DNA from: a candidate division WOR-3 bacterium
GTDB taxonomy: Bacteria; Hydrothermota; Tepidihabitantia; Tepidihabitantales; Tepidihabitantaceae
NCBI GenBank assembly: GCA_965648905.1
Contig: CBFGIT010000003.1
Location: 93,844-157,843, forward strand
Length of the DNA stretch: 64,000 bases
Direction of reading: 5' to 3'
A program made the position numbers and the translations under genes. Numbering within the stretch: position 1 is the first letter of the stretch; each line of letters begins with the position of its first letter. Positions 1,530-24,950 of this stretch are shown in pieces. The notes beneath the pieces were generated by a model that did not search any database, was not told the DNA's origin, and worked only from the letters and a program-made list of their open reading frames with translations.

Positions 1530-2297
1530 CTATCTCAGGACTGAGGTTGTCACGCGACTGGTCACGGCTCCGCGTGTCAGTTCGTAGATGTACAGGCCGC
1601 TGGCAACCGGTTGGCCTGAGTCGTCAGCAAGGTCCCACTGGACCGTGTTCGCTCCGGCCGGCATTGTGCCCGTAACCAGGGTCCGTACCAGCCGGCCTGC
1701 GGCCGAGCAAACGCGCAGACTGACCGGCCCGGCCTGGGGCAGCACAAACCGCACCGCACTCGCGTGGGTAGCCGGATTGGCTCGGGCCAGCGCCAGCCCG
1801 AGCGGAACGGGTGGCTCCGGCTCAGCAACGCTGACCAGATAGGGCTCGATCCAGGACCGGATGACGTACTCGTCAAATCCTTCCATGCCACCGACCACAA
1901 TCATTGCCGTGTCAATCACGTAGTTCAGCGGAATGTAGCCGTTGATGCGATACTGGTTCCAGGCTGTGCCGTTGTCACCAAAGAATGGGAAGCTGAACTG
2001 ACGGGCGTAGTAGCGAACCGTGGTCATGTCGTCCCAAGCGTTGATTGCCATCGGCAGGAACCCCTGGTCGCGGTAGTCGTCGTACATCGCCTGGACTCGC
2101 GGTAACTCCGCGAGGCAGCCCTGTCAGCCCGAATACCAGAAGAACAGTTGAATTGTCAGACCTTGGTAGGAAGAGAGATAGTGGTAGTTGCCGGCCGTAT
2201 CCGGAATGTAGAAGTCCGGGGCCGGGTCGCCCGGGTTGGGCCCGGCAAGAAGCAAGACCGGAGAAAGGACAAGGAGTGCGAGCAGCTTGTCGCGCAT
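1530..2297 (-). CDS. Secreted AhpC/TSA/TlpA-like redoxin selenoprotein (UxxC) with FlgD-Ig/T9SS-type C-terminal domain
   Basis: ORFs 2124-2306 and 1530-2087 share a frame. The junction reads FFWYSG-TGA-QGCLAELPRVQAMYDDY, i.e. U-Q-G-C at the CxxC position. Also GDPAPDF and IPLNYVID redoxin motifs, a signal peptide, and SD AGGAGG before ATG 2297. Confidence 0.9.
2096..2114 (-). promoter_or_regulatory. Putative bacterial SECIS element
   Basis: mRNA CUCGCGG-AGUUA-CCGCGAG: perfect 7-bp stem starting 9 nt after the in-frame UGA (2124-2126), with a G in the loop. Confidence 0.75.
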
Positions 2298-21418: not shown

Positions 21419-21724
21419 ATGGACCAAGAACCAAGAGCTGCAAGACGGGCGTTCAGTCCGCAGGAGAAGCTGGAAATACTGCTGGAGGGCGCGACGACCG
21501 GCAACGTTGCCGAGGTCTGCCGCCGCCGTGGGTTGAGGGTCAGTATGTACTACCGATGGCGGGCCATGCTGTTCAAGCATGCCGGCGCTGTGTTCGCACA
21601 TGGCAACGGCGGGACAGGCCAGTGTCAGGTCGCAGCACTGGAAGAGCAGTTACGCCGTAAGAACGCGGTGATCGCCGAGTTGACCCAGGAGAACCTGGAC
21701 CTAAAAAGGGGGCGCTGGCATTGA
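21419..21724 (+). CDS. IS transposase OrfA (HTH plus coiled coil)
   Basis: RRAFSPQEKLEILLE...VAEVCRRRG...YYRWR...ENLDLK. Confidence 0.9.
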   Translation: MDQEPRAARRAFSPQEKLEILLEGATTGNVAEVCRRRGLRVSMYYRWRAMLFKHAGAVFAHGNGGTGQCQVAALEEQLRRKNAVIAELTQENLDLKRGRWH

Positions 21725-22782
21725 GTGACCATCCCCGAGCTTTGAGCGAGAACTTCAACCAGGTTGCCGCCTGGGTCGAAGCGACCCGGCAGCGCAGCGG
21801 CTGGCCGGTCCGCACTATTCTGGCCAGGCTGGGCATCACGCCGGCACGCTTCTATCGCCTGCGCGCCCGACAGGCGGTTGAGGTCGGCATCCGAGACGAC
21901 GCGCAACTGGTGCGCCGCAGTGTCCGGGAACTGCTGCCTGAAGAGCGGATGCTGGTCCTGGACTATGCTTTGGCCTTTCCGGACTCACGTCATCGGGCAC
22001 TGGCCTATGAGCTGGCTGATGCCGCTATCGTGTGCGCATCACCCGCGACAGTCTATAGGGTGTTGAGCGAGAAGGGGTTAGTTCCTGGCGGGCGGGCGGA
22101 GCGGGCGGCGGTGACAAGCGGGTCTGACCGTAGGCGGGCGCGACTGCCGGACGAGCGCTGGCTGTTGGACTGGACCTATCTGACGATCGTCAGGCGCTGG
22201 TGGTATCTTTTCTACCTGATGGACGAGTACTCGCGGTACGTGGTTCACTGGGAGCTGTGCTGGCGGATGGACGAGTCGGCCACGACCGCGGCGATTGAGC
22301 GTGCGCTGATGGTGCCGGGACGCAAGCGGCAGCCATCGATCCAGACGGACAACGGGCCGGCCTTCATCAGCCGTGACTTCAAGAGCTACCTGGCCGGGCA
22401 TGGCATCAGGCACGATCGGATACATCCCAACTGCCCTCAGGAGAACGGGATTGTCGAGCGTGGCATCCGGACCTGCAAAGAGCTGGCTGGTGACGAGTTC
22501 GACGAGGTCGGACTGGCGCGGATTGAAATCGGCCGGGCGGTTGAGTACTATAACTGCGAGCGGCGGCACAGTGCGCTTCAGTATCTGCGGCCGATCGACT
22601 ACTATCGTGGTGACCCAGAGGCTCTGCTGGTGGCACGGGCTCGGCGCATGGCGGCGGCCCGGGAACACCGCCGGCAGACTAACCTGGCCTTCAACCGCGC
22701 GTCACAGGACCGGTGGAAACGGGCCGCAAAACAGGCAGAGGACTCCCTAAATCCGATGCCCGTTTTGTCTCATTTCGCGTGA
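21721..22782 (+). CDS. IS transposase OrfB (DDE integrase core)
   Basis: WLLDWTY, DEYSRY, TDNGPAF, PQENGIVER, YYNCERRHSAL. Confidence 0.92.
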   Translation: MSDHPRALSENFNQVAAWVEATRQRSGWPVRTILARLGITPARFYRLRARQAVEVGIRDDAQLVRRSVRELLPEERMLVLDYALAFPDSRHRALAYELADAAIVCASPATVYRVLSEKGLVPGGRAERAAVTSGSDRRRARLPDERWLLDWTYLTIVRRWWYLFYLMDEYSRYVVHWELCWRMDESATTAAIERALMVPGRKRQPSIQTDNGPAFISRDFKSYLAGHGIRHDRIHPNCPQENGIVERGIRTCKELAGDEFDEVGLARIEIGRAVEYYNCERRHSALQYLRPIDYYRGDPEALLVARARRMAAAREHRRQTNLAFNRASQDRWKRAAKQAEDSLNPMPVLSHFA

Positions 22783-22959: not shown

Positions 22960-23157
22960 TCAGTTGTCGGGCTGGGATTTGTCGCGGACGACCGGTGGAA
23001 GCTCGCTGCTGCGCCGCCGGGCCCGCGACTCGGCGGCGCGCGTCCGGAGCTGCCGCAGCCACTCGTCCACGCTCAGCCCATCCCGAATCCGCTTCTCCTC
23101 GGCCTCGCGCCGGACCTTGTGCAGCCACTCCATCCAGTCCAGACCATCAATCTTCAT
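22960..23157 (-). CDS. Small protein, putative antitoxin
   Basis: 65 aa, charged and helical; overlaps the 3' end of the PIN gene. Confidence 0.6.
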   Translation of the reverse strand: MKIDGLDWMEWLHKVRREAEEKRIRDGLSVDEWLRQLRTRAAESRARRRSSELPPVVRDKSQPDN

Positions 23158-23628
23158 AGAGCACCACCTGTTCAGGCGTCCTGATATTCACAAACTGATA
23201 CCCCTCGCGCAGGTTGACCGCATTGAGCCTGCGCTCGGCCCACTCGTTCGCCAGATGCCTTAGGTTCAGAGAGACGATGACGTCGGCGCGGCCGACAGTT
23301 GCGAAAGCGGCGTGCCGGGCATCCAGTACCTCGACCGGAGGGATGACTCCGTCTCGAACGTACAACTCGGCCAGCCGGGTCACCTCCGCCTCATCCGCGT
23401 CGAGTACGTCCAGTTGGTCGAGCAGTGCGAGCAGTCTTGACCGCACGGGTTCGGCGGTCTGGCCGAGCTCCTCCTCAGCCAGCGGCGAGACCGCAGCGTT
23501 CAGCAGGCCCATCGATAGCTGTCGGAACATCGCCTGCCTGCTTCCCGTCGGACGGCGTTCCGTGGCTCCTCGTCGAAGTAGAAGCCGAAGACCGAAGTCT
23601 CGATGTAGTGCAGGGGCTGGTGTTCCAT
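23147..23628 (-). pseudogene. PIN-domain (VapC-like) toxin, frameshifted near 23537
   Basis: The N-terminus MEHQPLHYIETSVFGFYFDEE (from ATG 23628) is in a different frame from MFRQL...DARHAAFAT...IVSLNLRHL...IRTPEQV. Confidence 0.8.
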
Positions 23629-23878: not shown

Positions 23879-23907
23879 GAGAGCCGGCCCGAGTCGGGCC
23901 GGCTCTC
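23879..23907 (-). terminator. GC-rich hairpin after the second selenoprotein gene
   Basis: GAGAGCCGGCCCG-AGT-CGGGCCGGCTCTC, perfect 13-bp stem, no U-tract. Confidence 0.5.
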
Positions 23908-23925: not shown

Positions 23926-24810
23926 CTAGTGGACCACGCGCAGACGCACGGTCTCGGTCTGCTCCGGGGTCCGAACCGTGCAGTAGTAGACTCCAGGCTG
24001 GTAGCCGGCAGTGTTGATGTTCAAGGACGAACCCTGAGCCTCAATCGTCTCGACCGCGCGGCCGGTCGCGTCCCGCACGGTCATGGTCATGGGGCCGGAT
24101 GCGCCGTCAAGGCTGATTGCTGTCCTGCGGTCAGCCGGGTTGGGCAGGCATCGTACCGTCGGCACGGCACGGGCTGGCCGAGCTTCGCTGATGCCACTGA
24201 CCGGCACAAGGGTGATGTCGTCGGCGGAGACCTCCGCCCACGGCGACCCTCAGCCGCCTGAGGTGCCGGCGTAAACCGACACCTTGAGCTTCTGGACAAA
24301 GCGAATCGGAACGTCGGGCAGGTTCTGGGTCAGTTCGTCGTAGACGTTTATCTGGAACCGGTTCCATTCGGTGTTGGGCACCTGAATCAGATGGCTCGTG
24401 CCGGTGGAAACCCAGTTGCAGTACGGGCTGGGGTAGTAGAATCTGGTGTCGCCCTGAAAGGCGTTGTCACGGTCGTAGTAGCCGAGAATCACCGCCGAGA
24501 CCGGCCAGCAGGTCGAGGAGCCGGCCCCGAGGTTCATTTTGGCCCAGAATGAGAAGTCGAGGTTGAGGTTCGTGACGCTGACCATCTGGTCGAGCGCGGT
24601 CGAGCCGGCCCCGAGATACTGCTGCAGGTATGCCTCATAGTCCGGGTCCGGGTGATAGCCGGTTCCCCGGTCAAAAGTGTGGGTTCCGGCCCCGACCGGG
24701 TTCTGGGTCCAGCCGACCGAAAGGTCCTGCTCAAAGTCACCGTTGACGAGCAGGTTCTGGCCCAGGGCAGACCCAAGCACAAGCAGCGCACATAATAGCA
24801 GTCTAGACAT
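23926..24810 (-). CDS. Predicted secreted selenoprotein: jelly-roll/CBM-like domain plus T9SS-type C-terminal domain
   Basis: ORFs 24250-24837 and 23926-24207 share a frame. The junction reads YAGTSGG-TGA-GSPWAEVSADDITLVPVSGISE. Signal peptide, NLLVNGDFE at the N-terminus, PNPA...DATGRAV...PGVYYC C-terminal domain, SD GGAGG before ATG 24810. Confidence 0.8.
24223..24238 (-). promoter_or_regulatory. Putative bacterial SECIS element
   Basis: mRNA GGCGGA-GGUC-UCCGCC hairpin starting 11 nt after the UGA (24250-24252). Confidence 0.78.
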
Positions 24811-24950
24811 CGACGAACCTCCAGTTAGCATTGACACATGATAGCCGATGGCCGGCCCGAGTCAAACCGGGCTGCCATCCGTTCTTGACATGCTGCATCC
24901 GGACACTATCTTGGAGTCGTGCAGTCTGCCTCATTTGCCCCGGACCGCTG

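Follow-up and report, generated by a model that had tools for sequence, protein, structure and literature searches.

A gene in the 64,000-nucleotide stretch analyzed here (hereafter the window; contig CBFGIT010000003.1 of assembly GCA_965648905.1, a candidate division WOR-3 bacterium) raises the question of whether an in-frame TGA ends its product or is translated as part of it. The open reading frame (ORF), on the minus strand, runs from an ATG at position 24810 to a TAG at 23928..23926 and is interrupted by a single internal TGA at 24252..24250, its codon 187. A first-pass annotation had proposed that this TGA encodes selenocysteine (Sec; U in the motifs below) in a new family of secreted selenoproteins, and the tests that we ran all favor this core claim. 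We consider it very probable that the UGA at 24250-24252 is a genuine, conserved Sec codon served by a Sec insertion sequence (SECIS) element resembling that of Escherichia coli fdhF, and only marginally less so that the whole proposal holds, namely, that one intact gene encodes an exported selenoprotein in which UGA 187 is recoded as Sec. Judging from its homologs, the gene is a member of a large, undescribed family of predicted secreted proteins with a fold resembling that of carbohydrate-binding modules (CBMs), found in Sec-using WOR-3 bacteria. The TGA, the hairpin that follows it, and the C-terminal sorting domain are all located where the annotation had put them.

The strongest indication that the UGA is translated is its recurrence at one and the same position. 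A six-frame search of the bacterium’s own genome with the read-through protein returned 14 matches, 8 of which cover the N-terminal domain (N-domain) and 6 the sorting domain only, and each of the 8 N-domain paralogs contains exactly one in-frame TGA. Among 60 relatives, nearly every listed N-domain match likewise has one TGA, in frames of approximately 300, 640, or >1000 residues. The TGA column is shared by all 29 N-domains of the first search round, where it forms part of the motif YTSGG-U-GxPWAEVSADDxxL, and the portion downstream of the UGA (GxPWAEVSADDxxL) is kept in frame across the aligned homologs. When we tabulated the Sec column over 75 extracted homologous domains (the 29 first-round domains, 6 loci flagged for having no or odd stops, and 40 more distant matches), TGA was found in 72, Cys in one, and neither in two; this rate is biased, since the 40 distant loci had been chosen among rows marked as having one TGA. 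A fairer rate comes from a sample of 151 genomes distributed evenly over the phylum, 36 of which have a match at E ≤ 1e-10: here, 80 of the 82 listed matches carry the in-frame TGA, and one of the two that lack it is a 60-residue fragment that stops short of the column. The annotation had named TGA versus Cys at this column as the pattern to look for, and TGA indeed prevails, with Cys in the minority. Shared by 72 of the 75 domains, the combination of TGA column and hairpin is, by this comparison, far beyond chance. The family is sizeable, with many paralogs per genome (8 copies in the bacterium’s own) and no fewer than 449 clusters at 50% identity among public sequences; as far as its homologs can be traced, it is confined to the Sec-using part of the WOR-3 phylum.

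A second body of evidence comes from the hairpin GGCGGA-GGUC-UCCGCC, a 16-nt element with a 6-bp stem that begins 11 nt 3′ of the UGA. The bacterial SECIS (bSECIS) model describes an apical loop of 3 to 9 nt with a G in its first two positions (usually GG or GU), an upper stem of 4 to 16 bp, a distance of 16 to 37 nt from the UGA to the loop, and a minimum free energy of ≤−7.5 kcal/mol (PMC13188914, section 5). The window hairpin lies within all of these published limits, with a GGUC loop, a stem of 6 bp, a spacing of 17 nt, and −23 kcal/mol for the 44 nt counted from the UGA (z-score, −2.47; 5 of 200 shuffles fold as well). The likeness to fdhF that the annotation had claimed is borne out on K-12 DNA, in which the UGA is followed after 11 nt by GGUUGCA-GGUC-UGCACC, so that loop, spacing, and the string AGGUCU are common to both; as in fdhF, the hairpin is located inside the coding sequence, and the genome holds the full Sec machinery. 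The two elements differ in that the stem of the window gene is a perfect GC-rich helix of 6 to 7 bp, whereas only fdhF has a bulged U, and in that the host protein is unrelated to formate dehydrogenase. By analogy, we infer that the hairpin is read by the organism’s SelB.

The hairpin is also conserved across the family. Of the 72 Sec-bearing homologs, 70 have a canonical hairpin at a distance of 17, 20, or 23 nt from the UGA, and in one more locus (L033), the closing pair is mismatched. Of 71 aligned hairpins, 67 share the GGUC loop (the variants being GGUU and AGUU), and the stem occurs in a series of compensatory versions, GGCGGA/UCCGCC, GGCGAA/UUCGCC, GGCAGA/UCUGCC, GGCGAG/CUCGCC, GGCAAG/CUUGCC, AGCCGA/UCGGCU, and GGCACA/UGUGCC. 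Covariation, another check named in the annotation, is present at 5 of the 7 pairs of this 71-hairpin alignment, which change on both sides (52 cells), and 89.9% of the cells are paired; none of 500 shuffles matches the observed pairing or covariation, a count that is not a probability because the hairpin sequences are related. Sliding the partner by 1 to 3 columns lowers the pairing to 24 to 58%, and in the set of 29 sequences, 99.4% is paired. The encoded peptide mirrors the RNA, in that AEVSA, AKVFA, and ARVLA follow the pair from G-C to A-U to G-C (E/S to K/F to R/L). Since synonymous third positions covary too (GCA with UCU), the alignment shows that selection acts on the hairpin RNA itself. 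A search against Rfam matched no bacterial SECIS family and gave only chance matches (E > 3). A strict scan of the bacterium’s own genome for SECIS elements with GGUC or GGUU loops found 37 sites, with a credible coding context only in 7 members of the family; this strict motif is no general detector of the genome’s other selenoproteins. A distant member of the family (L043, G060:C8), with the motif NCST-U, has another SECIS, CACCUCUG-GUG-CAGAGGUG, with 8 bp at a distance of 34 nt from the UGA; the loop that leads into the last strand of its N-domain is longer.

The genome also encodes the apparatus that such an element requires, which the annotation had asked to be confirmed: we found selA (560 bits), selB (348 bits), a tRNA-Sec with the anticodon TCA (72 bits), and two selD genes, each with an in-frame TGA (L001, G000:C4:87631-88554; L002, G000:C8:88040-88942). 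By this in-frame TGA, each selD would be a selenoprotein itself, and the copy on contig C8 adjoins selB. A global reassignment of TGA is ruled out because TGA terminates 891 of the 1806 frames of ≥300 codons in this genome (62% G+C), together with the single internal TGA in each family gene. In the phylum sample, selA is present in 47 of the 151 genomes, including all 36 of the family-positive ones and 11 without the family, and two close relatives that lack selA (G014, same family; G039, same order) also lack the N-domain family. This co-occurrence, in which related genomes are not independent of each other, is what one would predict of a Sec-dependent family.

The mechanism that we propose is the following. 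UGA 187 would be recoded as Sec during translation, with SelB and Sec-tRNA(Sec) binding the hairpin 11 nt downstream, within the W-A-E-V-S-A codons. The product would comprise a signal peptide, a jelly roll whose last strand is preceded by the Sec-bearing loop, a linker, and a type IX secretion system (T9SS) sorting domain; it would be exported by the Sec translocon and then be released or attached to the surface by the type IX system. Failed Sec insertion would leave a fragment of 186 residues without the last strand or the sorting signal, which is probably useless.

What does the UGA interrupt? In an AlphaFold2 model built from a 27-sequence alignment (mean predicted local distance difference test [pLDDT] score, 89.9), residues 18 to 205 form a β-sandwich, the sorting domain forms an Ig-like sandwich, and the linker between them (residues 204 to 222) is disordered. 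Sec187 is located in a loop (residues 184 to 190) between the strands 174-183 and 191-203, the second of which is encoded 3′ of the UGA and has a pLDDT of approximately 98 (98 for the block 191-200). Because this post-UGA strand belongs to a confidently modeled jelly roll, the model indicates one gene rather than two. The annotation’s argument that stopping at the TGA would leave the jelly roll incomplete thus agrees with the model, in which the last strand lies beyond the UGA. Its description of 14 sense codons leading from the UGA straight into the sorting domain is right about the codons, which encode the SECIS hairpin and the last β-strand, but not about what follows the UGA, as that strand (residues 191 to 203) and a 19-residue linker intervene.

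The jelly-roll-like fold that the annotation had suspected also appears in the model, which places the N-domain in the β-jelly-roll class of CBM4/16/61. The nearest fold relatives would be the jelly rolls of CBM4, CBM16, CBM61, and CBM70 and the CBM-like C-terminal domains of phage tailspikes. In contrast to these CBMs, the jelly roll described here has no sequence-level membership, since no Pfam or NCBIfam model, including that of any CBM family, matched residues 1 to 205 at E ≤ 1, and sugar binding would be a putative function. We know of no CBM that carries selenocysteine. The hydrophobic N terminus, with ALG-QN, has an equivalent in all aligned homologs and is a helix at residues 2 to 15 in the AlphaFold2 model, while residues 223 to 290 score above the curated cutoffs of TIGR04183 (34.5 versus 23 bits) and PF18962 (28.7 versus 27 bits). 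With its putative signal peptide, the protein would have the same order of signal peptide, functional domain, and C-terminal sorting domain as T9SS type A cargo, from which it differs in that its gene holds a Sec codon. A homolog of the translocon protein SprA is encoded in the genome and scores over the cutoff (456 bits summed). In the long paralogs (L012, L014, L017, and L027), approximately 350 residues (about 210 to 560) are inserted between the Sec module and the T9SS tail; this region of the 640-residue forms matched no Pfam family at E ≤ 0.01, and part of the jelly roll is repeated in these forms, in a weaker second copy.

As to the role of the selenol, the alignments point to cysteine partners. 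In the clade of the window gene, all 29 members have Cys101 (in SSTCWP) and lack a Cys close to the Sec; another 33 members lack Cys101 and have a Cys at most 4 residues before or 6 residues after the Sec, forming in the sister clades the vicinal motifs CU, CUxxHC, UGGC, CSTU, and CxxU. This pattern suggests that a Sec-Cys pair may be supplied from either place, with Cys101 as the putative partner in the window clade and a vicinal Cys in the sister clades. The annotation had put forward two cysteines as partners, and Cys101 is a plausible one, given its presence throughout the clade; the cysteine of PYCNW is present in about half of the clade and is the less likely candidate. Most likely, the selenol would endow a surface loop with a site for redox activity or metal binding. 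Motifs like those of the sister subfamilies occur in cataloged CU/CxxU selenoproteins (SaoL, HgcA, MbdU, and KCU-star) and in exported thiol-disulfide oxidoreductases, and in the catalog, CU and CxxU motifs mark selenoproteins that handle redox reactions or metals and organometals (PMC13188914). The window protein differs from these in its context, SGG-U-GSP, which has no adjacent Cys, and in a fold that is not thioredoxin-like.

We then compared the family with public annotation. A word-indexed protein search returned 51 relatives of 163 to 246 residues covering ≤64% of the query; those that are named are “hypothetical proteins” of candidate division WOR-3, and the closest entries are 186 residues long. 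With an exhaustive profile search, 449 representatives were detected at E ≤ 1e-3; 239 of them are at ≤1e-10 and 89 at ≤1e-30. The Sec column lies within 3 residues of the end in 122 of 199 database relatives, 17 extend past it, and 60 are fragments; this indicates that the database relatives are systematically cut at the UGA, with their downstream halves presumably lost or mis-called. Five of the 17 read-through relatives have a Cys aligned at the column (P0057, P0079, P0086, P0098, and P0124), although in P0086, the aligned Cys precedes the Sec position and the position itself is Ala; in the remaining 12, the column holds Val, Leu, Ile, Gly, Pro, Asn, or a gap (2 relatives).

The annotation had recognized no known selenoprotein family in this sequence, and the catalog and NCBIfam scans agree with it. 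Table 1 of a 2026 review, a catalog of 119 prokaryotic selenoprotein families and subfamilies, lists no CBM-like or T9SS-cargo family and no Sec-bearing CBM (PMC13188914). In NCBIfam release 20.0, no selenoprotein model matches the N-domain, and the BSepDB supplement makes no mention of WOR-3, T9SS, a sorting domain, or carbohydrate. We found no description of the family in the open-access full-text literature, subscription journals being outside the scope of the search, and nothing relevant that links selenoproteins to T9SS turned up in that same literature. Among characterized selenoproteins, thioredoxin-like folds bearing a redox motif predominate (PMC13188914). The recoding mechanism is ordinary; the novelty lies in the kind of protein that surrounds the Sec and in how large the secreted selenoproteome is. 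If our reading is true, it adds a structural and cellular context for Sec, a lectin-type jelly roll on proteins that leave the cell through the type IX system; it increases several-fold the number of selenoproteins counted in an uncultured phylum; and it exposes a systematic annotation error, through which 122 of the 199 database relatives end at the UGA.

Could the same data be explained without a chemically used selenocysteine? The annotation had seen selenium-dependent sorting as the rationale of the design, in which case the UGA would mainly be a switch for the T9SS signal and the selenol would have no chemical role. Several features fit such a switch: the UGA precedes a linker and sorting domain of 107 to 116 codons in 14 of the 72 members and 249 to 490 codons in at least 14 more, termination at the UGA would cost those members their sorting signal, and other T9SS-tailed genes in the genome also have a UGA upstream of the tail. 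However, 12 of the 72 Sec-bearing members end 16 to 27 codons past the UGA, which leaves room for no more than the SECIS and the last strand; they keep both UGA and SECIS with no sorting domain behind them. Furthermore, the UGA always falls in the same part of the structure, the loop that leads into the last strand, and does not occur just anywhere 5′ of the tail; a partner Cys adjoins the Sec in 33 of the 72 members; and Cys is found at the column in 5 of the 17 read-through relatives, as is usual where Sec is put to chemical use. Because those 12 members retain Sec without a sorting domain, it would appear to be kept for the N-domain’s own sake, and the rationale given in the annotation is not supported. 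Full-length cargo does need Sec insertion, and gating is, on this comparison, a consequence rather than the reason; we regard a pure switch as improbable. Somewhat more improbable still is that the UGA is passed without selenium, by near-cognate decoding (e.g., as Trp or Cys) or by programmed partial termination that yields two products. Stable hairpins after stop codons can promote read-through, and the case for selenium in the protein is indirect, yet this hairpin has a SelB-type apical loop, GGUC, at the spacing of fdhF, and the loop is held in 67 of 71 hairpins while the stem covaries. Moreover, the family is found only with selA (36 of 36 genomes) and is absent from the two selA-less close relatives, and the commonest alternative residue in relatives is Cys, the analog of Sec.

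We give the least credence, very little indeed, to the TGA being a true stop, whether in a pseudogene, through an assembly error, or between two genes, with the downstream frame as a remnant or a small gene. The 186-residue length of the closest public entries is what a true stop would give, and the sole start codon of the downstream frame, a GTG at 24207, could open an ORF of 93 residues. Reading by eye, though, we saw no GGAGG-like sequence 5′ of this GTG that could serve as a ribosome-binding site, as the annotation had stated of the post-TGA frame; the downstream frame is conserved as protein and completes the fold; and promoter-like and terminator-like elements bracket the full 885-nt unit. 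The same “break” is found at the same column in 72 of 75 homologs, in many genomes and in 8 paralogs, and homologs lie on contigs that are closed or nearly so (a single one in G005), which argues against assembly chimeras. The conservation data thus contradict this explanation, as far as sequence comparison goes.

Some observations do weigh against the reading that we prefer, a Sec-Cys site in an exported jelly-roll protein. Apart from the choice of the 40 distant loci mentioned above, 10 of the 72 Sec forms have neither Cys101 nor a vicinal Cys, and none has both. The Cys101 type is nearly a single clade in a neighbor-joining tree (Biopython) from which those columns were excluded, and because it is essentially one clade, the mutual exclusion of Cys101 and vicinal Cys is, on this tree, a matter of approximately 1 to 2 evolutionary events and not of 62 independent observations. 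Of the non-Sec relatives that run through the column, 12 of 17 have no Cys there; because residues other than Cys occupy the column in these relatives, the jelly roll can apparently exist without the Sec site. Regarding export, the genome has two full-length PorU-like sortases, which score 357 and 354 bits, under the cutoff of 420 bits. Regarding expression, a look-up of sequencing runs listed no RNA run that contains the stretch; one DNA run, from a hot-spring metagenome, contains 22% of the sampled words, a match that carries no information on expression or habitat.

The annotation had further pointed to a set of exported selenoproteins, and such a set is present in the bacterium’s own genome, consisting of redoxins, proteins with an EGSGUG motif, and the jelly-roll paralogs. 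The screen that it had suggested, for T9SS-tailed frames containing a UGA, yielded a second UxxC redoxin and three EGSGUG proteins, so that this 3-Mb genome has at least 13 Sec genes (8 jelly-roll paralogs, 2 UxxC redoxins, and 3 EGSGUG proteins). One may speculate, with considerable reserve, that part of the WOR-3 phylum has an expanded secreted selenoproteome displayed on the surface via T9SS, to which the jelly-roll family contributes a new extracellular module. Within this tentative picture, and with no greater confidence, the module would be catalytic or would bind metals or chalcogens on a lectin-like scaffold, with a ligand site around the selenol; it would pair Sec with Cys101 here and use CU, CUxxHC, or CxxU in the sister clades; and it might perform extracellular chemistry outside every known selenoenzyme class.

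The other members of this set have hairpins of their own. The secreted redoxin of the window (1530-2297, minus strand) consists of a signal peptide, an AhpC/TSA domain with the motif WYSG-U-QGC (U58), and a FlgD_ig/T9SS-like Ig-like tail; the hairpin CUCGCGG-AGUUA-CCGCGAG is located 12 nt after its UGA, and the protein weakly resembles the NCBIfam model of the “WAxxUGC” ResA-like selenoprotein. The second exported UxxC redoxin, on contig C21 of the same genome (frame −2), has the motif NFWQSS-U-PQC, a GCGCGG-AGUUA-CCGCGC hairpin, and a T9SS-like tail. Three T9SS-tailed paralogs, on contigs C1 (frame +2), C10 (frame +0), and C9 (frame −1), share a conserved EG(S/R)G-U-G(T/N/S)AELF approximately 400 residues into the protein, followed in two of the three by an 8-bp hairpin approximately 33 nt after the UGA. 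An iterated hidden Markov model (HMM) of the sorting domain gave 254 matches to Ig-like/T9SS tails in the 3.0-Mb genome, a number in which profile drift may have a share; the number of T9SS-tailed cargo proteins looks unusually high for this genome.

The coordinates of the gene and its elements are collected in Table 1.

Table 1. Elements of the predicted selenoprotein gene and its immediate surroundings, in window coordinates
Feature	Position	Strand	Basis
Coding sequence, 294 residues if UGA is Sec, plus TAG	23926..24810	−	Relatives align full-length, with one in-frame TGA
Sigma-70-like promoter candidate, TTGACT-16-TATCAT	24838..24865	−	10/12 consensus matches only
Shine-Dalgarno sequence GGAGG, 7 nt 5′ of ATG	24818..24822	−	Read from sequence
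Signal peptide (putative), residues 1-17 (MSRLLLCALLVLGSALG, QN next)	24760..24810	−	Inspection by eye
CBM-like jelly-roll domain (predicted), residues 18-205	24196..24759	−	
Cys101 codon (SSTCWP), candidate Sec partner	24508..24510	−	Cys in 29/29 clade members
UGA codon 187, read as selenocysteine	24250..24252	−	TGA column conserved in homologs
SECIS core GGCGGA-GGUC-UCCGCC, within W-A-E-V-S-A codons	24223..24238	−	Covariation; fdhF-like loop and spacing
UGA plus extended SECIS stem-loop, −23 kcal/mol	24209..24252	−	z-score −2.47
Final jelly-roll β-strand, residues 191-203, 3′ of UGA	24202..24240	−	AlphaFold2 model
Flexible linker, residues 204-222	24145..24201	−	pLDDT 55-67; <50 at residues 207-214
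T9SS type A C-terminal sorting domain, residues 223-290	23941..24144	−	TIGR04183, PF18962
GC-rich 13-bp hairpin, ~19 nt past stop, terminator-like without U tract	23879..23907	−	Folding versus shuffles

Four promoter-type consensus sites occur in the region, whereas shuffled sequences have 0.4 on average. At the other end of the gene, a 71-nt stretch with the post-stop hairpin folds at −37.5 kcal/mol (z-score, −4.15), with none of 200 shuffles as good; a scan for consensus terminators did not flag this 13-bp hairpin. The flanking genes are unrelated to the selenoprotein, with plsY and gpsA located upstream, in the opposite orientation, and a PIN-domain gene and an insertion sequence (IS) integrase immediately downstream. 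The IS-type integrase (rve, E = 2e-19) is located at 21721-22782 on the plus strand, and the PIN-domain gene, a weak match (E = 6e-4) at 23147-23530 on the minus strand, adjoins the selenoprotein gene and has a possible 42-residue upstream partner at 23500-23628.

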